Source: Trichodelitschia bisporula
Lineage: Eukaryota
DNA: 64,000 nucleotides
Assembly: GCA_010356995.1 (NCBI GenBank)
Contig: ML996694.1
Span: 1-64,000, forward strand
Direction: 5' to 3'
In this document: positions 9,792 to 48,451 of the stretch, piece after piece
How the letters are laid out: every line of letters begins with the position of its first letter
How positions within the stretch are numbered: position 1 is the first letter of the stretch
Translations under genes and position numbers: made by a program
The notes under the pieces: model-generated
What the model saw: only the letters and a program-made list of their open reading frames with translations
Database searches by the model: none
Told to the model about the DNA's origin: nothing

Positions 9792-11584
9792 TTAAACGCT
9801 CTCCTTCGACTCACGGTCCATCTTCGCTTTGACATCCTCAAAGTCCACCGCATCGACCACCTGGCCATCAATCACGCCCATGTTCCTGTACAAGTCCTCC
9901 ACGCACTCACCGTCCAAAAAGCCGTCCGTCTTAGCCAGCTCTTCGAACTTGCTGGCCGCGCGCACGTTGTTGTTGTCGCCGGCCAGCCCGGCATACCCAG
10001 CGGGTACAATCCGCGGTGGAAACACGAAGCGCCCAAACACAGAATAAAATACAAATGCGCAACCAAAAGTTAGGACCCAACCAGTGTTGTACATGTGAAT
10101 AGCGGCGATGGCGACAAGGTCCGGGCGGTAGGCGCCGATCAGGCCCGGGAGGCCAAATACCATGCCGCAAACCCAGCAGGCGGTCGGCACGATCTGCCAG
10201 CCCCTGATGCCATAATACAATCCGCCGGGGCGAGGGTCGTACATGGAGGGGACATGGTAGTTGCCGCGGCGGACGACGAAGTAGTCGCAGATGACAATCG
10301 CACACAGCGGAGCCATGAAGATACCATAGCTGCCGAGGAATGTGAGAAAGCCGGCGGCGTCCTTGAGGAGCTGCCACGGGACAACTGCAATGCCGAGAAT
10401 CGAGCAGATGACTTGGCCGCGTTTGATGGTCAAGAACTTTGGGAAGAGGCCGGTGACGTCGGAGCCAAACGGCATGCTGTTTGCACCAAAGTTGGTAGTG
10501 ACCACGGACAGCCCAAAGCCAAAGGCGGCGAAGAAGCAGCCGGCGCGCGCGGCCGGATTCCAGAAGCGATCAAGGATGGCGCTGAGCAAATCCCACTGGT
10601 TCCAGTACGACTCGCCAAACTTTGGCGTCACCGCGGCCGTTGCACCGCAGCCGAGGAAGAAGATGACCGTCTTGCTGATAAAAATGGACGCAACTTGTGG
10701 CCAGCCCGCATCGCGCGGCGAGCGAGTGTAACGGGTAAAGTCCGGCTGGTTGACGAGCAGCGGCGACAGCGTGCCCATCACCGAGTTGACGCCGTTGAGC
10801 ATGGCCCAGCCGAGCGCACCACCGGTGAGCGGCTTGCTGCCGAGTGTCTCCAGTGACAAGCCGCCGCCGTACGAGATGCACCAACCGAATGTCCCGAAGC
10901 AGGCAATGGGGACAATCACCGAGGCCGTTGTAAACAGGTGGCGGATGCGCGTAGGGTGCACGAACTGGAAGGGAAACTGGATGAACCAGAAGAGGAAAAA
11001 GGCGAGGATCTCGCGCGAGCTCGTGCCGGTGCTCGCTGGGAGGTGGTTTGGGATGTTTTGCCAGTGGTGGCCGAAGATGCAGCGCAGACACACGCTGAGG
11101 AGCTTGCCGCCGAAGAAGGTCTGCACGCCGTACCAGATGATGGCGACGATGGCGCGCAGCGCAACAAAGAAGTAGGCGCCGTACATGCCGAAGATGCCAC
11201 GCGCGAGGACGGGATATCCAATGTGGTATGTGGCGCCAGGGCGGCCCATGCCGAGTGCCACAAAGGATGCGATGACATTGGCGATGATGGCGGCGAGCAG
11301 CGCCTGCCACCACAGAAGGCCGACGGCGATCAGGGCAGCGCCGTTACCCCACTGGTTGCTGTTGAAGGCGTTGCTCCACCAGTACATAGACATGGATACC
11401 CTTTGCGGTCAGTCTTGCGTTTCTCTGCGCGGCAACAGACTTACCAAGTCCAGGTGCGGCGTTCCGGCGGACTCGGGGCCAGGTCGTGGTTGATCCATTG
11501 GGATGAGCCCGTCATCTCATTGTCCGTCGCCAGCGCTCGCTTGAGTGAAGCCTTGGTCGGCAGCTTCAACCGTGCGGAAACCAT
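9792..11584 (-). CDS. NCS1 family nucleobase/allantoin permease (Fur-like), copy 1
   Basis: N-terminal QWINHDLAPSPPERRTW, intron 11444-11401, then a 12-TM-type ORF with NCS1 motifs YHIGYPVLARGIFG, NQPDFTRY and ICDYFVVRRG. Confidence 0.93.
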
Positions 11585-13132
11585 GATGTCAGATAGTATG
11601 GGGAAACGTGGATGAACGGCGGACTCGGGACAGAGACTCTATTTGAAGGTGCACACTGCAGTGGGAACTATAGAAAAGAATGCACCGGCAGCTGTACCAA
11701 TGAGTTCCTCAACAACTGCAGCATTATCAGTTGACGCAGCAGCGAGATTGTCCTAGCGCACCGCGTTGGATAACGCATATATTCCCGGCCTAACGTCTTG
11801 GATAACATCAACGCCTCCGTGGTGCTGATAACCCAGTGCGCCCCGCCACTGGAGCAGCCATGATCGACGGCCAGACCACGGAGTGGACCCCGCTTCGCGG
11901 CATGTGCAAATAGACCAAGAGATAATGGAAAAGTGATTGTCGCTCCGCCCCTCCCGGCTCTGGCTGAGGGACGGGACATGACTTTTTTAATTAGCTCTTG
12001 AACCGACTGCTCGCAGCCACGATACCGCAGGTAAGCTTTTGCCAACGCAAGGCTAAGCTGGTGCATCGTACTCGGACAATGGGCCGGCCTAGGCGGAGCT
12101 CGCGTGGTGAGGCTCACCGAAGTACTTGCCGATTGGTGGTGATATTTCCAGCATGGGGGGTTTGCACAGTGGAGATGATGTGGTTGGGTGAAATCTGGGG
12201 CCGGGGAAGTCTTTATCGTTGATAAGGCTGGGGCCCCGCTGACGTCAGACCTTAGCGCCTGATTGGGGACGAAGCGAGAAGATAGTCGGAACCAGTAGCC
12301 GACAGGACGCGATAAGCGGATCTTGAGTCCGAACACCAAGAACGCACTTCCGACGGGAATAAGCAGTGCGATCATATACCAATGCGGTGTGTGGCTGCTA
12401 AAGAATGCGCTTTATCTTTTTCGAGGGCCGCTGCGAATTGATCACAAATCGCCGCTTACGTCAATTGACGTGAACGAGGCGGTATCACAGCCTTGCGACT
12501 TGCCTGTCCCAGCGCGGGCGGAACCCAGTCAGTTTCCCTGCTGCCGTTGACAGAAATTTGCAGACTAGCGAGTAGCTCTAGCTAGGACAATCTGCTCTGG
12601 CGGCGGAATCCCTTGCTGATATAGTGAAGCCAAGTTGCATGGGGCCCGCCGGTGCCATCGACTTCGAACACACAGTGTGGAGTGCCACCGGCGAACCCGG
12701 GTCCATATCAACTCACCGCGATTGTTTCTTCCTTGTGCAGTATGCTCCTGATCAGCTTAGGGTTAGGCTCAGGGTTCTTTGCGTACCGTAGCTGGCTTTT
12801 CTCATAATCTGACAAAAAGTGTATGCCCTGGCAGATGGCAGGCAGGTGCTAGTTGACATTGGTCCCTGTGGTCAATGCGGGGGAAGTGGGGCACGGTTGG
12901 GACTGAAAAGCATGCCGGTCAATGGTTTCTCACTAACAAATCTCAAGAATGTGAATAAATCAGACGCTTCATATTGACTTCTATCATCCTCAGCCGTATG
13001 AACCAGAAGGTTGGTCGAACATCCTTTCAGTTCCACATGAGGAGGAAGTCTGAGACCCGTTGTCGAGTCCACTTTTCCCGCCATCAGGCTTTGAAAGCGG
13101 AGATTCTTTCCTTCAAATTTTATCGGTTGTTT

Positions 13133-18269: not shown

Positions 18270-19990
18270 CTATGGCTTTTCTATCCGCCAGTCGAACTTG
18301 CTCTCCCACGCGTGACCTGCCCGGAGCACCTTGCTATCCTGCCACAGGCCGCCCACAATCTGCATACCCACCGGGAGATACACGTCCTTCTTCGTCTCCG
18401 ACGGCAGCCAGCCCACCGGAATCGTCATCGCCGGTTGCCCCGTTACGTCAAACATGGCCGTGTTCGATGTCAATCCGACGGTGGGCTGGATCGTCGCAAT
18501 CGGCGTCGTTAGCGGGCCGTGCTCGCGCGCGACAAATGACGTCGTGGGCAGGACCAGAACGTCGTACGTCTCCAGTGCATTCTCGTACGCATCACGCACA
18601 CGGCGTGTCAAGTTCTGCGCCTTGCAGTAGATGCCAGGGAAGTTGTCGATCAGGTAAAGGCCGTTGAGCATTGTGTTCTTCGTCGTCGGGAAGGCCTTGT
18701 CGAACTTCTCCTGCGTCCACTGGTGCAGCGCCTTGTCGAGCTCCGTCAGACCGTAGCCGCGACGGCCGAAGACCTTCCCGAGCAAGTTTGAGCTACCGGC
18801 GATGCGTTGCTGGATGGTCCACACAGCCGTGCCGAGCAGGTGGTCCGGGATCGACACGTCCTCAACAGTGGCGCCAAGCTCCTTGAACCGCATCGCCGCT
18901 GCCAGCACGGCCGCCTTCATGCCAGGGTCGACAATTGCCTGCGTGAACCCTTCTGTAAGAATGCCTACCTTGAAACCGGTGAGGTCCGTTGCCGACGACA
19001 GCTTCAGGTCTGCGGCAAAGGTGGTTGTGCCATGCTTCGGAGCGCCGAGGGACCGGTCGTCGATACCGTCGTAGCCGCTAATGGCGTCGAGGCAGAGTGC
19101 TGCATCCATGACCGTCTTCGTCAGCGGCCCAGCATGGTCGTCAACAGGGTCGTTGCTGGCAATGCCGGTGTACGGCACGAGGCCGTGGGTGGGTTTGAGT
19201 CCGACGCATCCGCACAGCGCGGCGGGGACACGAATGCTGCCGCCCTGGTCGGCGCCGATACAAATGTCTACAAATCCACCACCCACCAGCGCGGCGCCGC
19301 CAGATGTGCTGCCGCCGGCATTGAAGCCCTTGGCGTGCGGGTTCTCGATGGTGCCGTAGGCGCTGCTCATAGAGCTTGTCGACTGGCACATGTTCTCGCA
19401 GTTGGAGGTGCCCACGATCTCGGCGCCAGCCTCAAGCGCCCAGGTCACCACCGTCGCATCGCTGCTAGGCACCCACGGCTCGATGATGTCTGTCCCCAAA
19501 GTTTGAGGCACGCCGGCTACTGTGATGCAATCTTTGAGGCACACCGTCTTGCCCGTCAATGGGCCGTTGATAGACGCGTCTTTAATGGAGAAAGTATGTG
19601 CCCAAGCAGTACCAAGGACCTGATCTTCGGGCGGCACTCTCCGCACATTGTTACGCGGGAAGCGCTCGAGGTCTGTAGGCGGGTGGTAATCGGGCAATGC
19701 CTCGATCATGGCGGCGCAATCATGGCACTAGAAGGTTAGCGGAACAAGACGCGAGGCAAGACGGGAGGAGCAACTCACAGCAGCCAGTAGCTTGGTGTAG
19801 TCGGCCTCATCTTCGGGAGAGACCTTCACGCCCACCTTCGACGAGGCGATGCTGATATGGTCGGTGGTGACAGGATTGGATCTGTAAGACGTGAGCGGAG
19901 TCTCGTACGGAGGTGAAAAGGGCCGGCGGGACGCGCGGGGAGCGGAGTGCGGGGTGCTCACTCGGAGATGCTTGTGAAAAGGACCGACAT
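18270..19990 (-). CDS. Amidase-signature family enzyme
   Basis: ATG 19990 with two 5' introns (GTGAGC..CAG, GTGAGT..GCTAAC..TAG). Ser-cisSer-Lys motifs VCLKDCI, AGGSTSG and GADQGGSIRVPAALCGCVGLKPT. Confidence 0.93.
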
Positions 19991-20353: not shown

Positions 20354-21376
20354 ATGTCCACCCCCTACAACCTGGGCACCGACGCCCTCAAAGTGGCTCC
20401 CTTCAAGTGGGACGATCACTACGACTTCCCTCGCAACCTCGTCGGCTTCGGCGAAAAGTCGCTCAACCCGCAGTGGCCCAATGGCGCGAAAATCGCCGTC
20501 TCGTTCGTCATCAACTACGAGGAGGGCGCCGAGCACACCGTCCTCAACGGCGACGTCCACTCGGAGACACACCTCTGGGAGGCGCCCGGCGGCACTCCGC
20601 ACGTTCAGGAGCGCGCAGTCAACATCGAGTCCGAGTACGACTACGGCGCCCGCGCCGGCGTGTGGCGCCTCTTCCGCCTGTTCAACAAGCACAACTTCAA
20701 GTACACATTGTACGCCGTCGGTCAGGCGCTCGAGGGCAACCCCGCAGTGGCACGGCATTCGGTCGAGAACGGGCACGACATTGCGTCCCACGCGTACCGC
20801 TGGATCGACTATCACAACATGCCGGCGGAGCAAGAGAAGGAGTACATTCGCAAGGCCCTGACGTCGATCAAGGAGACGAGCGGCGTCTACCCCAAAGGCT
20901 GGTACTACGGCCGGCTCTCGCCTCGCTCGCACGCGCTGGTGTGGGACGTGTACAAGGAGATGGGCGTGCCTCTGCTGTGGGAGTCGGACTCGTACGCCGA
21001 CGACGTGCCATACTGGGTCGACGTGCCGGCTGAGAAGGACTCGCCAAACCCCGAGGGCATGCTCATGATCCCGTACTCGTACGACTGCAACGACTACAAG
21101 TTCAACGTGGCCACTGGCTTTGGCGCGCCGCACGATTTCTACGATCATGTCAAGGGCGCCTTTGACGTGCTGTACGAGGAGGGCTCTGAAGGCTCGCCAA
21201 AGATGATGACCATCGGCCTGCATTGCCGCTGCATCGGCAAGCCGGCGCGCTTTGCGGCGCTCAAGAAGTTTGTTGAGTACATTGCGGCCAAGGAGGGTGT
21301 GTGGGTGGCGACGCGCACGCAGATTGCGGAGCACTTCCGTGAGAAGTTCCCGTACAAGAAGGGCCAACTCGCGTAG
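20354..21376 (+). CDS. CE4 polysaccharide-deacetylase-fold amidohydrolase, PuuE allantoinase / S. pombe Cda1-like
   Basis: Intronless 340 aa. FPRNLVGFG, WPNGAKIAVSFVINYEEGAE, ESEYDYGARAGVWR, HDIASHAYRW, DSYADDVPYW and MMTIGLHCRCIGKPAR are PuuE-subfamily hallmarks. Confidence 0.93.
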   Translation: MSTPYNLGTDALKVAPFKWDDHYDFPRNLVGFGEKSLNPQWPNGAKIAVSFVINYEEGAEHTVLNGDVHSETHLWEAPGGTPHVQERAVNIESEYDYGARAGVWRLFRLFNKHNFKYTLYAVGQALEGNPAVARHSVENGHDIASHAYRWIDYHNMPAEQEKEYIRKALTSIKETSGVYPKGWYYGRLSPRSHALVWDVYKEMGVPLLWESDSYADDVPYWVDVPAEKDSPNPEGMLMIPYSYDCNDYKFNVATGFGAPHDFYDHVKGAFDVLYEEGSEGSPKMMTIGLHCRCIGKPARFAALKKFVEYIAAKEGVWVATRTQIAEHFREKFPYKKGQLA

Positions 21377-22247
21377 ATTCGTAGCCTCGTGATGAATTAT
21401 GATGTTTCTTGCCCATTGCTTATGGTGATGTGCGCCCTCGCCCCGTGTGGAATGTCTCCCAAAGCCCTGGCTGTTTCCCACAAATATCGGAGCATCAAAT
21501 GACGTCCATCGGCACCTCCTCCGAGCCGTCATCTCTCAACGCTTGCCATATCTTGCTCTCATCCGGCCTTCGACTTCCCGTTCCCCTCTTCACTTGCTGC
21601 GCCGGACCGACCAGAAGCCAGTCAAAATGGATTTCCCCTTTCGTGAGTGCTCGAGCACCGGCACCTGCCAGGTCGGAATCTGCGGCCAGCAATCGGACCG
21701 AGTTGCTGATTCGCAGACGCCAGACCCTGTTCATTTGCACCGAACCTTCGCTTGCCCGACCTCTATCGGGCCGCTGACACGTTCCCAGTTGCCCGATTCT
21801 AAGCCGACCACATGCCAACTGGCCACGACCCCGGCGAATCAAACAACTTTGGACATCGCATGGAGCCAGCTCTCAAATATGCAATGACAGGAATGTTTTT
21901 TTTGGAGTATGAAAGAGTCTGTTTAGGGCAGCGCATGCCAGTTCCAGAATCATGCAATTTTAGCAATTGTTTGGTTCCGCCAATGAGCGAATTGCAAAAC
22001 ATCGCATAGAAGGAGAGAGTGATCGCGGCTGCCCGCTCAAGAGGCATCGCACCCATCTCCTCTCATCTCCATTGAACAGGCTCCATTGCAAAAATGCTGT
22101 CCAAGTTTCAAAGTCATAACCCGCTGTAGCAGCCCACTGTCGCTTTCGCCTCCTTTCCAAACCCATTACCAAGCTCCATCGCTCAGTAGGTTCCGTGTGA
22201 AAGCCCATGAAGCGATGTGTGTCTAACAGCCGCATAGCACCTCCATC

Positions 22248-22504
22248 ATGTCCGGCAACAAGAATCATCAGAACGAGACCTCCAATACCCAAAATCCACC
22301 ACAAACGAACCGAAGTCCAACAAGGCCTTCGACTACAACTACGGCGTGCCAGACTTCACGACAGAGGAAATGAAGTGGCTGAAAGACAACTGGAAGGGTG
22401 AATTCAACTTTCTCATTGCGTATGGCCTGAAAATGCAAAATCACGAGGACCGCGCGGAGGGTCGGCGTATTTGCCGGATCATGATGGACCCGGACGACGA
22501 CTGA
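22248..22504 (+). other. Small conserved-looking fungal ORF; either frameshifted after ATG 22248 or a 44-aa ORF from ATG 22370
   Basis: FTTEEMKWLKDNWKGEFNFLIAYGLKMQNHEDRAEGRRICRIMM resembles a recurrent small fungal protein motif (WLK...G.EF.FL..YGL.....EDR.EGR.I.R). The upstream ATG is in a different frame. Confidence 0.5.
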
Positions 22505-23040
22505 TCTCGATACCATAGTCGGTCACCGAGACACCTGTGCACCTGTCGTGGGGTCCTTGGGACCTGCCGGTTGCGGGTGCACTGAATGACGTTTAATGAG
22601 AGCCATTTGCTTTTGGCGTTTGCTGCACATCTGAGCTGAGTTTCTACTGTATCTTAATGCAAGCAATGAAAATTCTAGACTGCTGAATACGAGGCAAATG
22701 ACTCTCTGTGATCCATGTTGCCTCATGACTGAATTTATTCCCTTCTAGTACATATTTCATCAAGTCTTCTGTTCTTGATACGGGAAGCCGACATTCGAGA
22801 GCCTCTGACCTTCATCATACGGTATGCTCAAGCAAGCCAGCAACGATGATGCCTCATCCTGAGCGTATCCCCATCTACAGTAACCTAGCTCCCGTGCAAA
22901 ATGCCGGAATCACAATCAACCGGAGCTCGGAAAAGTCAGATGAGGTACAGTAAATCATGAGGGCCGTTCAAATGAACAAGCCTCTGTATCATAGAGCAGT
23001 ACAGGTACCAATGACAGCAGGTATGCCATTCATACAATCA

Positions 23041-34565: not shown

Positions 34566-34574
34566 GCGACGACC

Positions 34575-34720: not shown

Positions 34721-35017
34721 GCGACTGTTCTACAACTGGGCTCAGGACAATTGGCTAGACTGGCTACCACTGGTGGTGTCCCTGTGGGCGACTTCGGCGC
34801 AAGGCTTGGGCATGCGCCTGACGCGAACTTCCCACTTGAGAACGAGTTCAACGGATATTGTACGAACAAATTTGTCCAGATGTCTCAAACTCACTGCATT
34901 AGTGTGGTACAACAACCGTGGTCATCGATTTAGAAAAACAGGCAGGTCTGATGAGAAGTGACATTGAGATGTGGGAAAAGCTACTCGGTCAAGCCCCATC
35001 TCAGCACTCTTATTGCA

Positions 35018-36363
35018 TCAAGCACTAACACCCACCACCTCTTCCTCCTCCCACGCCGCATAGTCCGTATATCCCCTCTCCCTATCCGGGAACGGTCCAT
35101 AGAAGCGATCCCGCTCATACATCCGCAGCGGCAAGCCCTCCCGCAGCCGCCGCGGCAAGTCCGGATTGCTAATGAACCACCGTCCGAACACAAAGGCGTC
35201 ATACTTCCCCTCCTCCAACACACCCCAAACGTTCTTCTCGTTCCATCCTCCACCGCTGATGAATGGTATTGACTCGCCGAAGATGTTGCGGAAGTGCGAG
35301 AGGTCTACCGAGTCCAGGCCCCACGAGGCGAGGAACGAATCCTTCTCGGCAGTGCTGAAGACTTGCTCGTAACGCTGCGATATGGGTTAGGCTAAAGGAC
35401 CATGCGTGTCGGAATGGCACTCACAGGCTCAATGAAGGAGACGTAAGACAGGTGCGGCTGCCGCGCCTTAAGCTCCCGACACAAGTGCGTCCACGTCTCC
35501 ATCCGCTGTGCGCCTCTAGCCTGATTGAACAAACCAAACGGACTCAGTCTCAACGCCGTCTTCTCCGGCCCAACGGCCTTCGCCAGTTCATCCATCAGCT
35601 CGAGGACAAACTTGCACCGCTTCTCTGGGCTCCCTCCGTAGTCGTCCGTCCGCACATTGCAGTTCGAGCTGAGGAACTGCTCGGGGAGATATCTGCATCA
35701 TCAGTCCCCCTCCACATCCCGAGTTAGCCGCAAAACATACCCATTCCCGCCATGCACCTCCACCCCATCAAACCCACACTCCTCCACCGCCGCCCGCGCC
35801 GCATCACAGTACTCCTGAATCGTATCCCGTATATCCCCCACCGTCATCTCCTTCGGCGGATAATCCACCATCTTCAGCATCTCCGTACTCCCCGGCCGCG
35901 GGTACGAATACTCCTCCTCCGGATCCTCCCATACCACCGCACTGGGGCCTACGGCAGGCACCCCCGTGATCGGCTCCAGCGTCGTACGACCGGAGTGCCA
36001 GAGCTGCGCGTAGATGTACCCGCCTTTGGCATGCACCCGGTCCACAACCTTCTTCCATCCGCTTACATGCTCAGGCAGCCACAAACCAGTCGTGCCCGGC
36101 ATGCCGCCGCCGCGCAAACTCGGCGGAATGCCTTCGGTGATGATCAACCCGCCTGGCGTCGTCCGCTGCTCGTAGTATTCGGCGACGAGGTCGTCGGGAT
36201 ACCATTCGCGGTTCGGCGCATCAGAAGTTCCTTCGCTCACCGGAACCCCGCGATTGCGCGTTAGCGGCGCGAGGATCACGCGATGCTTCAGTTCGAGGGT
36301 TCCATTCCCGATTTTGAGCGGCGTGAAGAGGAGCGAGGACGTGCGGTCTGCGGGAGAAGCCAT
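35018..36363 (-). CDS. Old yellow enzyme family NADH:flavin oxidoreductase
   Basis: LFTPLKIG, HRVILAPLTRNRG, EYYEQR, QLWHSGR, GFDGVEVHGGNG|YLPEQFL, RTDDYGGS, LRLSPFG, FGRWFISNPDLP, GYTDY; two introns. Confidence 0.94.
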
Positions 36364-36861
36364 TGCGAGAGTGAAGACGGTGAAAAGGCGGGAGAGACGC
36401 GAAGGAGGGGCACGCTTAGGGTTTGTAAATACCCCTCCATCGCGGGGTTGCGCGAATACGCCCAAAAAGTTTCCTGCAGATGTCGTGGCGCCCTTTGTCC
36501 GCAGATGCGCCCTATCGGGGCGGCGGCGATTTCTTTTCGTGCCCCGCGGCCGATAAGTCCTCAGCCTCGTGCACGCGCCCGCTGCGTCGGGATGGCTTCC
36601 GTCGGATGGTGCTAGCGAGGCTGGGCGCTTTATCTAAGCGGTGATCGGCGCGGACTGCGCCCCGCGTAGCGAATGCCGATTGCGGGAGGCGGGCGCGGGG
36701 TTCGTGCCGGGTCAATTACGTAGGAGACAAGTAGAATTCACATGCCAATATGCGTGGCGCCGGCGCGCAGTGGGATGCGTCACTGCGATGTCTCTCGCCA
36801 GGACTTGCGGGAAGGGATGCGGCAAAGAAAGCGGTTTAGCAGAATCATGAATTGATTTCAG

Positions 36862-39151
36862 TTAGGCTATCATCGGCACATTCCACAAATCAAAATCCTG
36901 CATCCCATCCGCCGAGCCAAACGGCATCCCCTCATCGTAGGTCTGCACACCGAACTCTGCCTCCTCCATCCCCGTTAACCCGTCCCTCACGCCGCGCGGC
37001 ATCGTCGCCGCCATCAAACTCGCCGCCATCGTGGGGACCAGTACATCGCCATCATCCTCATCCAGCACGATGGGTTCACCTGCCATATCGGCGACCATGC
37101 GCGAGACCTCCTTGCCGCCCTCTTCTGACTGGTCAAGGGAGCCGATAAGCGCGGTGTCCATGCTCCGGATAGCCCGCCGCGGCTCATAGGCATGCGTCTC
37201 AATAGATTCAAACACGGATTGCTTAATCGCCTCGTACATATCCCTATACCGCTTAGCCCCAGGCCAGCGCTCAGTAATGATATATAGCACGATAGAGCAA
37301 GCATTCATATCGTTGCTCGTCGTAATGCTAAACACTTCCTGCGGCGCGGACCAGGTGCAGTACACCAGTGTTAAGCCAGCGAGGAACACAGAATGCAGCG
37401 CCATGAGCGAGAACCCGACGCTGATGCTCTGGTGCAGCTTCTTGTACGTCTGGCACACGCCGCCGCAGGCCTCGGCGCACTTTTTGATCAGGCGGTGGTG
37501 CGCTGTGGGGGCGGACAGGACGGGGTGTAGCAGGAAGCGGAGGCATTTGTAGTAGTAGACCATCTGTGCGGCGGTTAGTTTCTCGACACGATAGGGAAAT
37601 TGGCGGGCTTACGTAGTACCCGTATCCATCGATGACCCGCGTGTCGGTTGTGGCGGACGGCTTATCCGCACTGTGCTGCCGCGCATCGCTCGGAATCCGC
37701 TCCTTCCACTCCTCCAGCTGCCGCAGGAAGGGCTCGACTTCGGCTTCGACGTTGGATCCGAGGGGCGGGCGGTCGACGCGGTAGATGGACTGCTGGATCG
37801 CGGACTCGATGCGCCGCAGCCGGCAGATGTGGATGAAGCAGCTCAGGCTCGTGGAGGTGGCGGAGGGACCGTTGGTGGAGGATGTGGCGGCGGCCGTGGC
37901 GGCGGCTTCGAGAACGAGCGCGTCTTGCGTGGATTCGTCTACGTCCAGCGGGAGCTCGGCGTCGATGTCCCGGTCGGACACAGCGAAGGGTCGCCCGAGC
38001 ACGATGGAGACTTGCCGGTCGAGGCAGTAGCATGTCCAGAAGATGCGTTTGCGCATCTCGCTCTCGAGCAAGGAATACTTCTTGGGCGCGGCGCGGTGCA
38101 TGCCGAGATCGATGCACAACCTCATGGACAGGCCTATGTACGTGTACGCCCCTGGCCCCTTGGGCGAGCGGAGGGAGTAGATAGCGAGCAGAATGAGGAC
38201 TTGCACGGAGCGCACATCGTTGCAGGCTAAGATGCTGTCTAGATACTGCATCCCCGCGAGATGGTGCTGCTCAGAGTAGAACAACCCGGTCTCGCCCGTG
38301 GTTTCGAGGAAGCGCCCGCCGCAGGAGTAGACATGGTGCAGGACGCCCTTTTCGTAGGAATCGGACAGGGAGGAGCGGCGCGCGTGGAGCGAACGCAGGT
38401 ACGCGGAGTGGATGATCGGCCAGCGGGTCGATATGTGCTTCAGGTAGGACCGCAGCAGCGTGTCGGCGACGTCTTGCGGGATGGACGCCGTGTCGACGTA
38501 CACGTCCTCGTCGGCGTCGGAAAGCGATTTAGGGGTGAGATGTTCCTCGGGCCGCAGGCCGCGCCCGAAGGCTTCCTGGTCCTTGAGCAGGCTGCTCACC
38601 ATCCGGGACATGCTGATGCTGGACGACGCGCCGATGAACCCGCCGCTCGCCTCTAGGGACAAGTCGCGCAGTATGCCTTCAAGCGGGTTGGCCACCCGTG
38701 CATGTACATCGACACTCCTCGCAGGCCACCCCCCCTCAGTCCCGGGACTACTCACACTCTCCCCACTCCTCGCGCGTTTCGCCGGCCTCCTCCCCTCCCC
38801 ATTCTCACTCTCCTCACTAAGCGCCTGCTCATTCATCTGTCTCCATCTCTCATTCCCCTCCGTCACAATCCCCTCCTTCTCCAAAATGCTCTCCAACTCC
38901 GCGACCCTCTCCTCCGTAGCCTTGAGATACGGATCCGTGCGTGACATGCGCGCCGGCTTGATGTATTTGCATTCCGCGTCGAAGGATGTGCAGTTCGAGC
39001 AGCTGGGGCGCAGGCCGTCGCATTTTTGCTTGCGGGTTTTGCACCGCCGGCAGGCGAGGGCGACGCGGGCTCGCCGGGGCTTGTCGCCGGTAGTACTGGT
39101 GGTGGTGGTGGTGGTGGAGGCGGGGGGGGAGATGGGTTTAGCCATTGTCAT
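36862..39151 (-). CDS. Zn(II)2Cys6 transcription factor with fungal-specific TF middle domain, reminiscent of UaY/Ppr1-type regulators
   Basis: ACRRCKTRKQKCDGLRPSCSNCTSFDAEC; MRLCIDLGMHR, EMRKRIFWTCYCLDRQVSIVLGRPFAVSDRDID; intron 37612-37564 joins GYY|MVYYYK. Confidence 0.93.
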
Positions 39152-39568: not shown

Positions 39569-41453
39569 CTACAACGTCCCCTTCTCCCAAAACGCCACCG
39601 GCACATCAACCTCCTTGCACCGCAAATACTCCGCAATAAACTTGCCCAGCACATCATACGTAGCATTCGCCGTAACCCCACGATCCAAATGGTCATGAAT
39701 GAGGAAATGTACCGCCCACAAATTGGGAAACTCCATCCGGTCGATCCTCTGCCCTCTGTACTCCTCCTCCATCAGCGCCTTGAACTTCTCCGTGCTCAAC
39801 AGGCTCTGTAGCCACGGCCATTCCTCCGCATCCCTCGCAATGAAGCCAACATTGCAATTCGATCCCTTATCGCCGGCCCGCGCATACACCACCCGCCCCA
39901 GCGGCGCCCGCAACGTGGGCCCGAAACTAGCCAAATCGGCGGGGTTGCTCGCCTCGTAGCTAGGCTGGGTCGCGGGGTGCACGATGGTGTCAGTGGGGGG
40001 CCGCACCGTGACATCCCCCATCTCCGGTTTCGAAAAATGGACCGTCTGTGTGGGTTGCGGGATCAAGGTGGGGAAGTACTCAGTAAACTGCAGGTCAGAC
40101 GTTAGCTCCACTTCCTTATCAAAACGCCACAAAACTTACCGGTTTAGGCACCGCTGTGCGCAGATCCGTGTGGAATGTCGCGGCGGGATAGGTGTGCATG
40201 TTCATGTCCAGCGCCGGGCGGACGAAGTTCGCGTCCGAGAGATCCTCCGCGTGCCTGGCTTGCGCAAACAACCGCACGTCCACCGTCGCGAGGTTCTGGT
40301 TCCGCGGGTTGGGCAGCACGCCGCCGTATGCCGTCACCGTGAAGAGGCTGAACTTGGCCAGGCGCTTCTCGCCCAGCGTGTGCCGCAGCTGCGCCTCCAG
40401 AAGCTTGACCTTGTCCTCGATGTCCAGCCCGACCATAGCCCAGTGGATCTCAGCCTGATACCCACCAAACGCCGTAAGACCCATCTTAGTCGTGCCCGGC
40501 GGCGGCCTGCCCGTAACGCCAGACAACCGCACTCGGTTCGGCGCCAGTTCGGTGAAGGTCGCCTTGTCGATAACGGCCGTGACGTCGCAGTTGAGATAGT
40601 ACATCCCCTGGATCTCATACAGCAACTGCTCCTTGCACGTGTTGACTGAAACCAGACCGCCGGTCCCCTCGGGCTTGGTAATGACGACGCCGCCGTCCTT
40701 TGAGATCTCGGCAATGGGGTAGCCGTAGTCGTTGATCTGGTCCCAGGGGATGGACTTCCACCCGGTGAAGTTGCCCCCCGTAACGTACACCGAGCACTCG
40801 ATCAGATGTCCCGCAATCAGGGACTGCGCCAGCTGGTCGTAATCCGTTCGCTGCCAGCCATGCCACCACGCCGCCGCGCCGATGATGGGCGACGCATCGG
40901 CGACGCGCCCGCAGATGACGATGTCGGCGCCCGCTCCGAGCGCCGCCGCAATACCCATCCCACCGAGGTAGCACTGCGCGAACACCGGCTCAAACGGCCA
41001 ATCCGCCAGGTTCTGCCCCGTGGAGATATGCACAAACTTCCCGGGATTAGCTTGCAACTCGCCCTTCACCTTCTCCAGCAGCGCATCGCCCTCAACCCAC
41101 GCAACCACCAGATCGAGTCCCTTCTCCTTCACCATATCCACCACCACATCGTACAGATCCTTCGTGGCCACCGCGCCGGCATTGACGGCCACCTTGATGC
41201 CTTTGCGCGCAATGTCGCCCAGCGCCGGCTCCAGCGCTTCGAGGAACGATTCTTCGTACCCGATGCTCGCGCCCTGGGAGGCGTTGTAGGCGCGGGTTGG
41301 CATGTTGAGCTCGCTCATCCAGTCGCCGACGAGCACGTCGACGGGCTCGGCCATGGCAGCCGCTGCGGCCATGGCGGTGCGTTTGTCGCAGGGTGAGCCA
41401 CTGATATTCATGATCCGCACTGGGCGGTCGCGGGAGGGGGTAGAGATGGCCAT
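39569..41453 (-). CDS. AtuA / DUF1446 family protein (acyclic terpene utilisation family)
   Basis: RPVRIMNISG, VGDWMSE, GADIVICGRVADAS, AGHLIECSVYVTGGNF, EQLLYEIQG, ARAGDKGSNCNVG; intron ~40139-40091. Confidence 0.92.
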
Positions 41454-41927
41454 GGTGGATGATTTGAGAGGGTGAGAGGGTGAAAACGCTTGCCAGAACC
41501 AAGCAGACGCAGTGGATCAAATATGAGCTCCATCTTTCGTTAACTGTGATTTTAGGACTGTGATTGCAGCCGCATCGATGTCCCGTCGAAGAATGCGATA
41601 CCGAAAATCCAATGCGATACCGATCCGTGCGCGGCTCGGCAGCCTTGCCACCTGCCGTCGGAAGGACTTCCGAAGACATCATTCCCACTTGGGCAAAGGT
41701 TCGCTCTGCAACCCGCCGGAATGAAGGCTCTTCGTTCTCGAATGCCTTGCGTCACCTAAGCTCCGACGAGGCTGCTCCCGCCCGTCGGGTTGCCTGCCAC
41801 CGGTTCGAGCGCACATCGAGATTCAGTATGTACATCGCTGCGATCCCGTTTTGCGTGTCAAACTCCCATATATCATCGATTAATTCTATCCATCTTCATC
41901 AAGTGCCAAAAGAGATCACTCACAATC

Positions 41928-43204
41928 ATGTCCACCATGTCGACTTATCCTCCTCGCCCGCAGCTGGACCGCAAAAGCGCAAAGAACCTCCGCATCCAAA
42001 TCCGGAAAGTCATCAGCCTTTTCCGCACAAAATCCCAGCGCCGCCTATCATCCCCAAAAGTGTGGCTTGGAGATGAGAAACTCCCCACAGTCGTCGAAAT
42101 CACATGCTCCACCCCAGACATCCCAACATCCCAAACCGCCCTCGTCGTCGCACGCAAAGGCGAGTACGAATTGCGCTCCAACCATGACATGCCCAAGCTC
42201 GAGTCCGACGACGAAGTCATCATCCGCACCCACGCCGTCGGCCTCAACCCCATAGACTGGAAATCTGTCTCTTACAACTTCTGCTTGCCCTCCTTCCCTC
42301 ATGTTCGTCCCTTCCCCCTCCAACCTCTCATTTGACCCCTAACCTTTCGCAGATAACCGGCCGCGAAATGGCTGGCGTCGTCGAACGTGTAGGCACCAAC
42401 GTCACACACCTCCAGCCCGGCGACCCCGTCTGGACAAGCACCTACTACCGCGATCCCCGCGCCGGCTGTTTCCAGGAGTACGTCACCGTGCCGCAACACA
42501 CCGTGCACCCAATCCCGCGCGGGCTATCTTTCGAAGAGGCCTCGTGCCTTGGCGTCGGCGCTCTGACCGCCGCTATGACGCTGTGGAAGTGGCTCGATGT
42601 ACCGGTGTCTGACGCCGCGGCTTCAGAGGTTAGGGGAGAGGGGGAGGGGGAGTGGATCTTCATCTGGGGCGGCAGTACCGTCACCGGCCAGTTCGCGACG
42701 CAAATCGCGAAGCTGGGTGGCTTGCGCGTGATCACCGTGTGTAGTGGTCGGACAGCCGAATTGTCCCGCGCGCTCGGGGCCGACCACGTCGTTGTGCGGG
42801 ACGGGCGGGCTGAGGCCGACATCCTCGCCGAAGTAGAGCGTGTGACAGCGGGGGGTGTAACGCGGATGCTCGATCTCGTCGGGCCGAAGACAGCGGCGGC
42901 GTGTGTTCGGCTTTGTATGAGCGAGAGTCAGAAGGGCAGGAGGGTGGTGTTTGCGCCGCTGGCGATGATCGGGAAGGAGGAGGTGCTGGAGTGGGTGGAG
43001 GTAGTTACGGTGGAGATGAAGCGGTTTGTGTTGAATGTTGAGTGCGGAGAGTATGGGCGGCGGTTGAATGACTTGTTTGAGGCGAGCGAGTTGAAGTTGC
43101 CTGAGCTGGAGGTTTTGCGGGGCGGGCTGAGTGTGGTAGAGCAAGGACTGGAGATGTTGAAACTGGGGAATATGGGAGGGAAGAAACTTGTGGTGGCCAT
43201 GTAA
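41928..43204 (+). CDS. Medium-chain dehydrogenase/reductase, zinc-independent enoyl/quinone-reductase-like
   Basis: AVGLNPIDWK, GREMAGVVERVG, IFIWGGSTVTGQFATQIAK, RALGADHV, GKKLVV; intron ~42303-42352. Confidence 0.9.
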
Positions 43205-44778: not shown

Positions 44779-46281
44779 CTATGTAGACCCATTCAGAACC
44801 GGCACCTCGACGCCGTTCTTCTTCCCCTCCTTCTCCGCCTGCTCCTTCTTCCACGCCTCAATCGTGTCACCCTCAAACCCGCTCCCATACACAAACTTGT
44901 GCCCGTAGTGATCATCCCGCAGCTTCGCCTGTCCCTTGACACCATACAAGTTCTCCCGCAGCGACCCACCCGGCACCTCATAATCATCGCTCACCAGCCC
45001 ACGCTTCAACAGCTCCGGCCGCAGCAAATACACCACATCCTCAAACGTCCCCGGGCTCGTCACATACGCAATATTGAACCCATCGACATCAGCCTCGTCG
45101 ATCCACTGCTCAAACACATCGGCCACCATCTCCGGCGTCCCGACGGGCGCAGGGTGGAATCCGCCCAAAGCCATGGTCTGCCCGAGCCGGCGCGGCGTCC
45201 AGGGTTCCTTGTTCCCAGTCGCCTTGTTGAAGTTCTCGAGGAAGGTGTGCGTTGCGTCATCGCCTGGCTTGTCCGTCAGGTGCAGGACTTCGTCGAGGGG
45301 GAAGCGGGAAAGGTCGATGCCTGTGAAGCCTGAGAACTGTGCCAAGCCGCCGATGGGGTCGGCGTTCTCGAGCGCCCGCTCGTACTTGGCCTGCGCCTCT
45401 TCCATCGTCGCGCCGAGGATGGGGGTGATGCCCACGAAGAACTTGATGGACTGTGAGTCGCGGCCTTGCGCAGCGGCGTCGGCGCGGATCTGCGCCACGG
45501 AGCCCGCGGTCTGAGAAGGGACGAGTCCGCCGATGTAAATGGCTTCCGCGTGCTTGGAGCCGAAGGCACGGCCGGCCTTGGAGGTCCCGGCCTGGAAAAT
45601 GACGGGGGTGCGCTGGGGCGAAGGATGGGTTTGGTGCGGCGAGCTGGCCTTGAGGTACTTCCCCTGATGATCGATCTTCTTAACCTTGCTCGGCTCGTAC
45701 GCAACGCGGCGCTCGCGATCAAACACCACGGCATCGTCCGCCCACGAACTCTCCCAGAACTTGTACACCAGGTCCATGTACTCGTGCGCCACGGCGTAGC
45801 GCTCGTCGTGCGGGACTACATCGTCGGCGCCCAGCGCTTTGGCGGCGGCTTTGCTCCAGCTGGTGACTACGTTCCAGGCAACGCGCCCGTTGGTCAGGTG
45901 GTCGAGGGAGGTGAAGGTGCGGGCCAGGATGTAGGGCGTGAGGTAGGAGGTGCTGCCTGTGACGCCGAAGCCAAGGGTTTTGGTCACGGCGGCCATGGCG
46001 GGGATTATGACCATGGGATCGAGGGAGGCGGAATGCGAGCCGGCGCGGAGGATGGCGTCGGTGTTTCCGCCGTAGACGTCGAAGAGGGAGTAGGAGTCGG
46101 CGAAGAATATGAAGTTAATTTTGCCTTTTTCGGCGAGCTTTGCGAGGTTGAGCCAGTACTCGAGGCGGTCTTTGCCGGTGGTTTTGTCGTCGGGGTCGCG
46201 CCATTGCCCTGGGGACATGTGGGAGCCTGTGCAGGCGTTTTCGAAGAAGTTGAGGGAGATTTTCTTCTTGGGGGTGACCAT
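44779..46281 (-). CDS. Luciferase-like FMNH2-dependent monooxygenase, NtaA/SnaA/DszA family
   Basis: LAKLAEKGKINFIFFAD, ARTFTSLDHLTNGRVAWNVVTS, HDERY, PSPQRTPVIFQAGTS, VGTPEMVAD, DVDGFN, SLRENL; intronless. Confidence 0.94.
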   Translation of the reverse strand: MVTPKKKISLNFFENACTGSHMSPGQWRDPDDKTTGKDRLEYWLNLAKLAEKGKINFIFFADSYSLFDVYGGNTDAILRAGSHSASLDPMVIIPAMAAVTKTLGFGVTGSTSYLTPYILARTFTSLDHLTNGRVAWNVVTSWSKAAAKALGADDVVPHDERYAVAHEYMDLVYKFWESSWADDAVVFDRERRVAYEPSKVKKIDHQGKYLKASSPHQTHPSPQRTPVIFQAGTSKAGRAFGSKHAEAIYIGGLVPSQTAGSVAQIRADAAAQGRDSQSIKFFVGITPILGATMEEAQAKYERALENADPIGGLAQFSGFTGIDLSRFPLDEVLHLTDKPGDDATHTFLENFNKATGNKEPWTPRRLGQTMALGGFHPAPVGTPEMVADVFEQWIDEADVDGFNIAYVTSPGTFEDVVYLLRPELLKRGLVSDDYEVPGGSLRENLYGVKGQAKLRDDHYGHKFVYGSGFEGDTIEAWKKEQAEKEGKKNGVEVPVLNGST

Positions 46282-46724
46282 GGTTGCGGTTTGAGGGGTT
46301 GAGGAACTGAGGGGGGGGTTTCTGGGGGTGATGATGCGGATGCTGGTGAAGTGCTCCAGAGGAAATGGTTTATGTACTCCATCCTCGCGACAGGATCCGC
46401 AATTCGGGTTGCGATTGTTGAACGTCGGGCGGATTGTTGAATGCGGCACGATACCATCGCGTGGTGTTGTGAAGCCGTCGCGTAGTCCCCAGCCGTCGGC
46501 ATCGGAAGTAGAAACCGAAGCGGGCCGTGCTCCCGACGAGGCTGCGACGGATGGGGCAATTGGGGCTTTATTCCCGGATCGGCGGGGCTAACGGCATCAA
46601 CTAACGGGACAGCCACCGACGCCAGCGACTAGCGTAATCGTGCGTGTGTTCAGCCTAGCAAAAGGTTCGCGACTCCCACCTCCAACCCGATGTCTACACT
46701 TTTGCGTCGGGTACACAGAAAATC

Positions 46725-48451
46725 ATGGCGAAGGAATTGAAGGACCAGCAGGATTTGTCCAACGCCTTTCGCTTCTCGCGATTGGTGATTATCCTCAGTG
46801 CCCTCGCCTTTACGCTGTTTGTTTCGTTTATCGACCAGACGAGTGTGTCGACGGCGTTGCCGGCGATTGCGAAGAGTTTGGATGCGTTTGAGACGATTTC
46901 GTGGGCGGGGACGAGTTTCCTGGTTGCGAATACTGCGTTCCAGCTCATCAATGGGCGGATGAGCGATATTTTTGGGCGGCGGAATTGCCTGCTGTGAGTT
47001 CTGCATTCTGATTTTTGGCATTCGTTAATGGATCAGTGTGTGTATGACGACTTTGGCCGTCGGCGACCTCCTCTGCGGCTTCGCCAAAACGCCCGCCCAG
47101 CTGTACGTCTTTCGCGGTATCGCCGGTATCGGAGCCGGCGGGATCAACAGCCTCGTCATGATCATCTTCACCGACATGACCACCCTCCAACAACGCGGCA
47201 AATACCAAGGTCTCCTCGAGACCAACATCGCCCTCGGCAACGGCGTCGGCCCGCTCATCGGCGGCGCCTTCTCACAGTCCGCCGCCACGTGGCGGTGGGC
47301 GTTTTGGTTAATCGTGCCGGTGACGGCGGTGGCGGGGGTTACTATTTTCTTGACGCTGCCGAAGACGAGGGTTGAGGGGAGTGTGGTTGAGAAGTTGGGC
47401 AGGGTGGATTATGGGGGGATGTTGTTGAGTCTTGCGGCGGTTATATTCCTTCTGGTAAGACATGACGTTGAAGGGGGGAGTTGGGCTAACTTGCAAGATC
47501 CCTATTTCCAGCGGCGGAAGCACATGGTCCTGGTCCTCGCCACTCATCATATCGTTTCTCGTCATCGGCAGCCTCCTCGGCATATCCTTCATCCTCTACG
47601 AATGGAAGTTCGCCCAGTACCCAGTCATGCCCCTGCGCGTCTTCGAGCGCCCCTCCGCCAAAATCATGTTCACGCACAACTTCCTCACCGGCATCGTCTA
47701 CTACTCGGATCTCTACTTCCTCCCCCTCTACTTCCAAGTCGTCCTGGGTCACTCCCCGCTCCTCTCCGGTATCCTCATCCTCCCCCTCATTCTCGGTTTC
47801 TCAGCGAGTAGCGCCCTGGGCGGCGTTATGCTGTCCAGGTTGAATCGCTGCAATCCGATTATTTGGGCGGGATATGTGATGTGGACAGCCGGCGCGGGGG
47901 CGCATATGGCGTTTGGGAAGGACTCGAGTGTGGGGTTGCTGGTTGGGTGTTTGCTTGTTGAGGGCATAGGCATGGGGTGGGCTTTTCAGCCCGTCATGAT
48001 CGCTTTGCTCGCCAACACGCGGAAGGAGGACCGAGCCGTCGTCACTGGATTGCGCAATTTCCTGCGGACGATTGGCGGCGCGGTGGGGCTGGCGGTGTGC
48101 ACGGCGACGATTAATAATGTGCTGAGGGCGAATTTGCCGGAGGGCGTGAGTGGGAAGAGTGCGATGCAGCTTATTCATACGCTGGATGGTGGGAAGGAGA
48201 GTGAGATGGTGAGGGTGGCGTATATGAAGGGTGTCAAGATTGTTTTCTATTTGGCGTGTCCTATTATCGCTGTTTGTCTCATCAGCAGCCTGGCGCTCAC
48301 GGATGTGACGCTTACGACGGCTTATGACAAGCCGGCGGAGGCGGGGGTTGTGCAGGATAAAGGGGAGACGTCTGTGGAAGCCGAGGAGAAGAAGTCGGTG
48401 GATGTGGAGGATGAGAAAGTTCCGGTGGATGTGGAGAAGGCGGGGAGGTAG
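46725..48451 (+). CDS. MFS transporter, DHA2-like (14 TM)
   Basis: IDQTSVSTALPAIA, WAGTSFLVANTAFQLINGRMSDIFGRR, FRGIAGIGAGG, GPLIGGAF, WRWAF; introns ~46994-47036 and ~47455-47498. Confidence 0.93.

Follow-up and report, generated by a model that had tools for sequence, protein, structure and literature searches.

Does a group of catabolic genes that lies in two pieces on a fungal chromosome represent one functional unit, and if so, which of its genes belong to it? The question is raised by a 64,000-nucleotide stretch of Trichodelitschia bisporula (contig ML996694.1, positions 1 to 64,000 of the forward strand; hereafter, the window), in which transport, redox, amide-cleaving and regulatory genes form two modules, A and B, with the housekeeping genes CEG1 and ERG1 between them. 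Fungal catabolic clusters equipped with a carrier and a Zn2Cys6 transcription factor (TF) are a known kind, with DAL, hxn and quinate as examples. The initial annotation of this DNA had interpreted all 12 genes as a single pathway, analogous to the bacterial Rut pathway, that releases nitrogen from a modified base or cyclic amide.

Comparison with other fungi leads us to a narrower reading, to which we assign a probability of roughly 0.6. The window would carry the T. bisporula copy of a conserved, patchily distributed seven-gene cluster of Pezizomycotina, here split, whose products import and degrade an N-heterocycle or a cyclic amide. The core comprises an NCS1 carrier, a luciferase-like monooxygenase (LLM), an NtaB-like flavin reductase, an AtuA/CmlA-like protein, an alpha/beta-fold protein, an MDR protein and a Zn2Cys6 regulator. 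In the window, the reductase, the carrier (NCS1b) and the alpha/beta-fold protein are encoded in one block and the TF, AtuA, MDR and LLM in the other; about 8 kb separate the two. The genes at the edges (OYE, a DHA2-type MFS transporter and an amidase/PuuE-like pair) are, judging from the same comparison, probably lineage-specific additions or neighbours.

Conservation of the two gene groups in other fungi

Pfam was run on all 147 stop-to-stop open reading frames (ORFs) of at least 110 aa between 4 and 50 kb of the window. All 12 genes were recovered at the coordinates and in the families given by the initial annotation, and the exon models provide each of them with an open frame from ATG to stop and with GT..AG introns where spliced, which confirms that inventory. 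From left to right, the genes are NCS1a(-), amidase(-)/PuuE-like(+), flavin reductase(-)/NCS1b(+), alpha/beta-fold(+), CEG1(+), ERG1(-), about 4.5 kb without a clear family, and then OYE(-), Zn2Cys6 TF(-), AtuA(-), MDR(+), LLM(-), MFS(+) and PDS5(+). The amidase and PuuE-like genes form a divergent pair, as do the flavin reductase and NCS1b genes. The two housekeeping genes that interrupt the cluster are CEG1 (27174-28738, +; Pfam mRNA_cap_enzyme and mRNA_cap_C, ORF 27174-28735) and ERG1 (28905-30428, -; Pfam SE, 306 bits, ORF 28908-30428).

Using an alignment of 28 close AtuA orthologues, we retrieved 80 metagenome loci; the loci were searched by tblastn with all window proteins, and Pfam was applied to four loci. 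Six loci, corresponding to three distinct sequences that are 70-79% alike in nucleotides, join genes of modules A and B contiguously. In L010 (the same as L009) the order is LLM(-) AtuA(+) TF(-) alpha/beta(-) NCS1(-) reductase(+) MDR(-), with identities to the window proteins of 68% for LLM, 62% for AtuA, 51% for the alpha/beta-fold protein, 69% for NCS1, 61% for the flavin reductase and 50% for MDR. L011 contains all seven genes in a different order (AtuA, TF, alpha/beta, NCS1, reductase, MDR, LLM). L026 (the same as L025 and L027) contains six core genes, arranged as TF(-) LLM(-) AtuA(+) reductase(-) NCS1(+) alpha/beta(+), with identities of 70% (LLM), 63% (AtuA), 54% (flavin reductase), 61% (NCS1) and 45% (alpha/beta-fold). 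The sub-block formed by the reductase, the divergent NCS1 gene and the alpha/beta-fold gene downstream of the latter matches its counterpart in the window in internal order and orientation.

Genes flanking the three clusters differ: eIF5A and a cutinase in one case, SBP_bac_5, MFS and FGE-sulfatase genes in L011, and a Gag1-like clamp and a pyridoxal-phosphate decarboxylase in the remaining one. The limits of the cluster were set on the basis of these differences. An in-cluster NCS1 transporter and a regulator with Zn_clus and Fungal_trans domains are found in L010, L011, L026 and the window alike.

Shorter loci carry partial clusters, namely MDR-AtuA-TF in L006 and L007, LLM-AtuA in L004, L008 and L013, and AtuA-TF in L005. 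Where the AtuA match reached at least 60%, 11 of 15 loci had at least one partner gene; the other four are three contigs shorter than 4.8 kb and one locus (L061) with a probable paralogue. The AtuA match was weaker in the other 65 loci; none of these contained an alpha/beta-fold, NCS1, reductase or MDR gene, and a single one, L013, contained an LLM gene; its nucleotide identity to L010 and L011 is 76-80%. Homologues of CEG1 and ERG1 were found in none of the 82 loci searched. Because the orthologues are contiguous in other fungi without CEG1 and ERG1, the conserved seven-gene cluster appears to be split in T. bisporula, and an arrangement in two modules within one genome becomes resolvable by comparison. 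The synteny check proposed in the initial annotation, run here on metagenome contigs, went in favour of joining the modules: genes of A and B co-cluster without the two housekeeping genes, in three gene orders.

Annotated genomes give a similar picture. Species with an orthologue of the alpha/beta-fold protein are largely the same as those with close AtuA orthologues, and according to database records the two proteins are encoded on contigs of equal size in 17 species. In all 18 comparable species, which span Dothideo-, Eurotio-, Leotio- and Sordariomycetes, the locus-tag or accession numbers of the two are 1-5 apart: 1 in Meristemomyces frigidus; 2 in Pestalotiopsis fici, Verruconis gallopava, Saxophila tyrrhenica and two Coleophoma species; 3 in Mollisia, Halenospora, Tricladium, Lophium, Stachybotrys elegans and Periconia; 4 in Amniculicola and Xylariaceae FL0016; and 5 in Cladophialophora carrionii, Rhinocladiella similis, Thozetella and Xylariaceae FL0804.

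What is seen, then, is a set of non-homologous genes adjacent in distant species between differing flanks, as in a conserved cluster. Our search of the open-access literature returned no description of this enzyme combination or cluster, and a search of the same literature with the Pestalotiopsis fici locus tags returned no expression study of it.

The arrangement is not due to chance, as these genes also stand side by side in many other fungi. One could still regard A and B as unrelated metabolic sets that happen to lie 8 kb apart: CEG1 and ERG1 stand between them, and flavin reductases of two-component systems can serve oxygenases encoded elsewhere. We consider this highly improbable, as it is contradicted by three contiguous clusters that mix both modules, by the module B gene AtuA and the module A gene for the alpha/beta-fold protein lying within five numbers of each other in 18/18 species and by a promoter motif common to the two modules (see below).

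Core proteins and their putative reactions

The LLM gene (44779..46281, -; 500 aa, one exon) encodes an FMNH2-dependent (reduced flavin mononucleotide) monooxygenase of the NtaA/DmoA family. It scores 148 bits against Pfam Bac_luciferase (ORF 44782-46587) and 460.6 bits against the NCBIfam model TIGR03860 (NtaA/DmoA), for which the cut-off is 279.7. DmoA (382 bits), LadA (352), RcaE (302) and DszA (254) are its best solved relatives, with HcbA1 also among them. By tblastn, orthologues with 68-79% identity adjoin AtuA in L004, L008, L010, L011, L013 and L026. A scan of genome contigs for a bacterial context of the LLM gave two distant loci (31-35%), neither of which had partner genes.

The flavin reductase gene (23041..23937, -; 298 aa, one exon) matches Pfam Flavin_Reduct (PF01613) with 84 bits (ORF 23044-24150). 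The best solved relative of its product is 3bpk, component B of nitrilotriacetate monooxygenase (99 bits), and orthologues 54-61% identical lie inside the clusters of L010, L011 and L026. LLM and reductase are neighbours in 3/3 full-length cluster types, which bears out the pairing of an NtaA-type monooxygenase with a separate flavin reductase across the gap that the initial annotation had postulated, and the reductase proved to be NtaB-like. An oxygenase that passes TIGR03860, together with an NtaB-like reductase encoded alongside it in orthologous clusters, has the make-up of an NtaA/DmoA two-component system. The window differs from NtaA/NtaB, DmoA, LadA, RcaE and DszA in that its genes are fungal and clustered with NCS1, AtuA and Zn2Cys6 genes, and the bit scores to the solved enzymes are moderate.

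In its logic, the locus resembles Rut: both combine an FMNH2 oxygenase of the luciferase-like type and a separate PF01613 flavin reductase with an alpha/beta-fold helper, a reductase, a nearby amide hydrolase, a base permease and a dedicated regulator. Rut has an isochorismatase-type RutB, a RutG carrier of the NCS2 type and a TetR regulator. In the window the carrier is NCS1 and the regulator Zn2Cys6, and Rut is without an AtuA-type protein. Orthology of the LLM to RutA was rejected (61.2 bits against a TIGR03612 cut-off of 498.3; 46 bits to solved RutA versus 382 to DmoA), as was that of the alpha/beta-fold protein to RutD (TIGR03611, 31.6 bits against a cut-off of 238.5). An equivalent of RutB was likewise rejected: no isochorismatase family was among the Pfam matches at 4-50 kb, where the amide hydrolases are PF01425 and PF01522 proteins. 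The reductase agrees with RutF at the level of the family only (Flavin_Reduct, 84 bits), its closest solved relative being NtaB and not RutF. Of the idea of a Rut-analogous pathway built from non-orthologous parts, the likeness in logic holds and the equivalence to RutA, RutD and RutB fails in each case.

The alpha/beta-hydrolase-fold protein (26325..27173, +; 282 aa) carries a non-canonical triad. Its Pfam score is 53 bits (ORF 26190-27170), and the 282-aa model is identical to a database protein. The nucleophile elbow reads G-H-H-S-G; G113, H114, H115, G117, D232 and D233 are invariant in 42 orthologues, and S116 and N258 are at least 90% conserved among them. In haloalkane dehalogenases, the residue aligned with His115 is the nucleophile Asp. 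By our own reading of the alignment, Asn258, in a conserved GGAN stretch, appears to sit at the expected position of the catalytic His. With His115 in place of the nucleophile and Asn258 so read, the protein departs from the canonical Ser-Asp/Glu-His triad, and it is predicted to be unable to act as a serine hydrolase. The initial annotation was right to call it an atypical, Ser-less hydrolase, His115 being invariant at the nucleophile position.

An AlphaFold2 (AF2) model of this protein has a predicted local distance difference test score (pLDDT) of 91.7. A fold search with it gave Z scores of 24.6-27.4 in the top 50 rows, with dozens of hydrolases equally alike and no specific assignment; RutD (3v48) came at rank 31 with Z 25.5, tied with dozens of other hydrolases. 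The family is rare, with 171 database proteins at E<=1e-20.

The AtuA/DUF1446 gene (39569..41453, -; 610 aa; exons 41453..40140 and 40087..39569) encodes a PF07287 domain (526 bits) and a C-terminal AtuA_ferredoxin domain (65 bits; ORF 39572-41516). Its first exon is 100% identical over the full length to a 610-aa T. bisporula protein at NCBI, and the spliced model also has 610 residues. When solved structures were searched by sequence, nothing was obtained with the single protein or the narrow fungal profile A1; the broader AtuA profile A3 reached 9evf_A at E 0.003. With the AF2 model of the AtuA domain (m7e18c8399d01, pLDDT 75.5), Foldseek returned one significant match in the PDB, again 9evf_A (E 1.4e-13), and VIA-align gave it a Z of 21.5 over 366 residues, the next row having 10.1. 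This entry is a 'citramalate lyase - ADP - pyruvate complex', and its depositors named the chain 'Acyclic terpene utilization AtuA family protein / Citramalate lyase, subunit A (cmlA)'. The fungal protein combines the PF07287 domain with the fold of a solved member and so belongs to the AtuA/CmlA family.

According to a preprint, citramalate lyase consists of two subunits, cmlAB; the AtuA_ferredoxin domain of the fungal protein may correspond to the second of them. The one characterised member of the AtuA family is thus a C-C lyase acting on a 2-hydroxy acid. As the AtuA model folds like CmlA, this suggests a late C-C cleavage step in the pathway. The AtuA domain matches chain A of the complex, which the depositors themselves place in the AtuA family. 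In the passages of a 2015 paper available to us (PMC4682846), the bacterial DUF1446 gene is part of an enterobacterial glutamate-fermentation cluster, the fate of citramalate being then unknown, and is not accompanied by an LLM system; the fungal protein, for its part, has the second, ferredoxin-like domain.

A fungal relative has been described as well. In the accessible part of PMC13399572, VdAtuA3 of Verticillium dahliae, a PF07287 protein gene with one intron, is presented as a mitochondrial partner of VdNuo1, a complex I subunit, and is said not to be clustered. The AtuA protein of the window is a member of a clustered clade, which is separate from a widespread group of homologues with about 55% identity. 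The second AtuA homologue of T. bisporula, P0088 (56%), falls into that widespread group. Some loci with AtuA homologues of 40-45% identity (L020, L024, L029, L030 and L039) have a weak Zn2Cys6 gene (24-33%) 1-3 kb downstream and lack all other partners. For Cladophialophora immunda, a paper mentions only an expansion of the AtuA family. The initial annotation had expected to give fungal DUF1446 proteins a functional context; the clustered clade is now placed in a defined unit, and the claim has been partly overtaken by CmlA and, as far as the excerpted text on it goes, by VdAtuA3. The link between the fungal AtuA clade and a newly solved citramalate lyase is a gain in itself.

NCS1b (24418..26148, +; 546 aa; exons 24418-24581, 24629-25854 and 25898-26148), divergent from the flavin reductase gene, scores 243 bits in Pfam (ORF 24621-26060) and has orthologues 61-69% identical in L010, L011 and L026. 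Pfam describes the NCS1 family as permeases for cytosine/purines, uracil, thiamine and allantoin. The MDR gene (41928..43204, +; 408 aa; exons 41928-42302 and 42353-43204) belongs to the zinc-type alcohol dehydrogenase/quinone reductase superfamily, with Pfam ADH_N and ADH_zinc_N (ORF 42188-43201) and orthologues 50-52% identical in L006/7, L009/10 and L011. The Zn2Cys6 TF (36862..39151, -; 746 aa; exons 39151..37613 and 37563..36862) has the Pfam domains Zn_clus and Fungal_trans (ORF 36865-39214). Its orthologues adjoin AtuA in L005-L011 and L025-L027, with identities of 38-60% in the N-terminal part and 52-61% in the C-terminal part.

In the pathway that we propose, the NCS1 carrier would import an N-heterocycle or cyclic amide, which could be nucleobase-, hydantoin-, lactam- or vitamin-like. 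The reductase would supply FMNH2 to the LLM, and the compound would be oxygenated or hydroxylated, or its ring opened. The alpha/beta-fold protein and the MDR may then process the reactive product, and AtuA, by its likeness to citramalate lyase, would cleave a C-C bond of a hydroxy-acid intermediate and so yield central metabolites. In fungi that possess them, the amidase and the PuuE-like hydrolase would free ammonia, and OYE may add an ene-reduction; the pathway may in this way release nitrogen. The in-cluster Zn2Cys6 factor would turn the genes on through a CGG palindrome.

A more specific version, which we put forward tentatively and hold to be rather doubtful in its full detail, is that of an undescribed pathway, common among filamentous ascomycetes, in which an NCS1-imported N-heterocycle is opened by a eukaryotic NtaA/NtaB-type two-component system and processed further by a His/Asn alpha/beta-fold enzyme and an AtuA/CmlA-type C-C lyase, under a Zn2Cys6 factor acting via CGG-N8-CCG. 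If true, it would be a convergent, non-orthologous counterpart of bacterial Rut and would assign a reaction to the clustered fungal DUF1446 clade. Four poorly understood families (the clustered AtuA clade, NtaA-type LLMs, NtaB-like reductases and the Ser-less alpha/beta-fold proteins) in any case become a defined seven-gene unit.

A shared promoter motif, the edge genes and alternative readings

Zn2Cys6 factors usually bind CGG-N-CCG palindromes. A 20-bp pattern of this kind, CGTCGGAAGNNCTTCCGACG, has four matches with at most three mismatches in the 64 kb, against 0.07 expected, and none of 100 shuffles reached four; the next best site in the window has five mismatches. All four sites lie upstream of genes in the two modules, two per module. 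The first, CGACGGATGTGCTTCCGATG (24054..24073), is in the divergent promoter of flavin reductase and NCS1b, and the second, CGTCGGAAGCCATTCCGAGC (26240..26259), is 66 bp upstream of the ATG of the alpha/beta-fold gene. In module B, CGTCGGGATGGCTTCCGTCG (36585..36604) precedes the OYE ATG by 222 bp, and CGTCGGAAGGACTTCCGAAG (41656..41675), with one mismatch, occupies the divergent promoter of AtuA and MDR. One clear motif-like site was also seen in L012, about 350 bp upstream of the AtuA orthologue. Simple CGG-N8-CCG counts and common k-mers were suggestive only, and a palindrome statistic at the hexamer level is common by chance, at least four regions being reached in 203/300 shuffles. The palindrome is a candidate binding site through which the Zn2Cys6 factor may switch on the cluster genes. 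A unit with its own regulator and a candidate site could be switched on to find its substrate.

Among the edge genes, the left-hand carrier NCS1a (9792..11584, -; 582 aa; exons 11584..11445 and 11400..9792, with one GT..AG intron) matches Pfam Transp_cyt_pur with 302 bits (ORF 9795-11408). Its identity to the NCS1 carriers linked to the cluster in other fungi is only 28-30%, and beyond this match the protein has no counterpart in the 82 loci. About 6.7 kb, with a Pol_BBD relic and tandem repeats, separate it from the amidase gene.

The amidase-signature enzyme (PF01425; 18270..19990, -; 529 aa; exons 19990..19962, 19881..19779 and 19727..18270, the introns being placed from the DNA and a homologue alignment) may be an accessory gene or a neighbour. 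Its Pfam score is 281 bits (ORF 18273-19727), and against NCBIfam PRK07235 it reaches 441 bits, below the cut-off of 545. The family is broad, with 6091 matches at E<=1e-40 and with Aspergillus, Penicillium and Colletotrichum proteins 57-63% identical. In C. carrionii, R. similis and Eremomyces bilateralis, an orthologue (~73%) is numbered four from the alpha/beta-fold gene, and in the first two it is numbered nine from AtuA; in Venturia inaequalis, Thozetella and Coleophoma cylindrospora it is on a separate contig. These positions point to the amidase as an addition in some lineages, and the same may be said, with less basis, of its PuuE-like partner. The gene is intact, yet no 100% match was among the best 120 of a protein search with its 485-aa exon (best 75%); searches of the same style with the AtuA and alpha/beta-fold proteins did return themselves. 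The amidase gene may be absent from the public protein set or modelled differently there.

The PuuE-like gene (20354..21376, +; 340 aa, one exon) encodes an amidohydrolase of the polysaccharide-deacetylase fold, with 58 bits to Pfam Polysacc_deac_1 (PF01522; ORF 20270-21373). With TIGR03212 it scores 357.6 bits, short of the cut-off of 424.6. The solved PuuE-type proteins 3s6o, 1z7a and 3cl6 are matched with 301-308 bits and 3qbu with 45, by which the protein is clearly placed in the PuuE branch; an atlas look-up returned NodB-like and PuuE clusters without discriminating between them.

OYE (35018..36363, -; 415 aa; exons 36363..35741, 35692..35425 and 35374..35018) is an ene-reductase with 140 bits to Pfam Oxidored_FMN (ORF 35704-36633); its promoter carries the shared motif. 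The MFS gene (46725..48451, +; 546 aa; exons 46725-46993, 47037-47454 and 47498-48451) is of the DHA2 type, with Pfam MFS_1 (ORF 46659-48448) and 91 bits, below the cut-off, to the EmrB-type efflux subfamily TIGR00711. Both are probably local additions. No homologue of the amidase, PuuE-like, OYE or MFS genes was found in the 82 loci, including the three full clusters with 5-10 kb of flank.

An efflux-type MFS could also suit a biosynthetic cluster whose secondary metabolite it exports, and patchy distribution with an in-cluster Zn2Cys6 factor is also typical of such clusters. However, no polyketide synthase, non-ribosomal peptide synthetase, terpene cyclase or other scaffold enzyme was found in the window region, L010, L011 or L026, and it is the importer-type NCS1, not the MFS, that is conserved with the cluster. 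We regard a biosynthetic role as very unlikely.

The edge genes also invite comparison with hxn, the fungal nicotinate regulon, which passages of PMC8478523 and PMC9304392 describe as distributed over several clusters in Aspergillus nidulans and forming one cluster in other species. By the same passages, hxn offers a divergent ring-hydrolase/amidase pair (HxnM/HxnN), an OYE-type HxnT, MFS carriers, rearrangement and a patchy distribution, all reminiscent of the window, whereas none of the seven core families is among the hxn genes described there. The authors name 3qbu as the closest solved homologue of HxnM (excerpt of PMC9304392), and identity of the PuuE-like protein with HxnM was rejected on the scores given above (45 bits to 3qbu versus 301-308 to the PuuE-type chains). 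The Pfam scan found no hydroxylase of the xanthine-dehydrogenase type in the window.

It is possible that the cluster ends with the core: the amidase and PuuE-like genes would then form an independent unit for ureide or imide hydrolysis, OYE, MFS and NCS1a would be independent too, and nitrogen release would not be the purpose of the cluster. The lack of edge-gene homologues in 82 loci agrees with this, as do the breadth of the amidase family, unlike the patchy AtuA and alpha/beta-fold sets, the placement of amidase and AtuA on different contigs in three species, an amidase/PuuE promoter without the full motif and the occurrence of lone divergent pairs of amidase and ring hydrolase in other ascomycetes (excerpted text of PMC8478523). 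On the other side stand the amidase numbered four from the alpha/beta-fold gene in three species, a linkage that recurs in two classes, and the common motif in the OYE promoter. We consider this separation somewhat improbable as a full account. The proposal that modules A and B are one unit survives for the seven genes that are contiguous elsewhere; it is not supported for the PuuE-like, OYE, MFS and left-hand NCS1 genes and applies to the amidase in some species only.

Several points weigh against the reading of a split cluster for an N-heterocycle or cyclic amide. The three full-length metagenome clusters all stem from a single series of sample records, and number spacing is an indirect proxy for gene order in which consecutive numbers are assumed to mean neighbours. 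The motif was found post hoc, by inspecting these very promoters. In an unbiased palindrome scan of eight promoters, the outer half-sites CGTCGG-N8-CCGACG appeared in five regions, which 9/300 shuffles also achieved (p ~0.03); at up to three mismatches, the motif is absent from the LLM/MFS, amidase/PuuE and TF promoters, and it was not found in the L010, L011 or L026 clusters. RNA contigs display only antisense splicing over AtuA, and the sense intron of AtuA is not among their joints. The likeness of AtuA to CmlA is structural, with 14% identity and a profile E of only 0.003, and a fold common to the two does not fix the reaction.

Two further points concern the substrate: the seven-gene core is without an amide hydrolase, and the solved enzymes nearest to the LLM have dimethyl sulfide, alkanes, riboflavin and dibenzothiophene sulfone as substrates. 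As these relatives (dimethyl-sulfide monooxygenase, LadA, a riboflavin lyase and DszA) use sulfur compounds, alkanes or riboflavin, an N-heterocyclic substrate is not implied by the oxygenase. The same cluster might instead serve to obtain sulfur or carbon, with a vitamin or an organosulfur or alkane-like compound as the source, and a gene with an FGE-sulfatase domain does lie beside the L011 cluster. Against this, the NCS1 carrier is kept in every core cluster, no sulfur genes flank the other clusters, and an amidase lies beside the cluster in four species, that of the window included. We judge such a different chemistry to be unlikely, and we retain degradation of an N-heterocycle or cyclic amide as the preferred reading.

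Transcripts, the gap and flanking repeats

RNA evidence consisted of two runs that are spliced contigs of one sample, of unspecified condition, over 22-42 kb of the window; they cannot rank expression, and this stretch leaves out the amidase, PuuE-like, LLM and MFS genes. The contigs are derived from RNA, since introns are missing from them at 14 places with canonical ends, and every bin of the 22-42 kb is covered. Their joints confirm the first intron of NCS1b (24580>24628), both introns of OYE and those of TF, CEG1 and ERG1.

In both runs, spliced plus-strand RNA runs antisense to AtuA at 40094..41903, with GT..AG introns at 40094-40147, 40599-40655 and 41826-41903. A long leader of the MDR gene is one possibility for this RNA, which might start at the divergent promoter of the TF. 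In module A, a contig joint at 26283-26350 has CT..AC ends, as a minus-strand intron would; it extends across the ATG of the alpha/beta-fold gene (26325) and hints at antisense transcription there also.

A small spliced transcript (22013..22693, +; intron 22186-22237), present in both runs, lies between the PuuE-like and flavin reductase genes. It was missed by the ORF scan, and its short ORF ends ...GLKMQNHEDRAEGRRICRIMMDPDDD; its coding status is uncertain. If annotated elsewhere, it would shift the spacing of gene numbers by one.

The remainder of the gap between the modules (30678..34930, +) contains an expressed ORF and a patatin fragment. An unspliced RNA contig (30678-32107) spans the ORF (31170-31937, +; 256 aa), which matched no Pfam family even at E 0.05 and no homologue in any fetched locus. 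The patatin-like phospholipase fragment (34541-34930, +), which has a GTSTG motif and 25.9 bits to Patatin against a cut-off of 27.7, is probably a gene relic. Within 27-37 kb there are no repeats that could account for the split of the cluster.

Repeats are found further to the left. A 370-N assembly gap lies at 2449-2818, outside the described region, and copia-type gag and pol relics lie at 7.2-8.5 kb and 13.5-14.2 kb. Tandem 179-nt repeats occupy 16637-16994. Direct repeats of 141 nt (96%; in the stretches 6393-9352 and 15700-16994) flank an inverted duplication left of NCS1a, whose arms (7238-7770 and 8053-8583; 95-97%) contain copia-type gag fragments.

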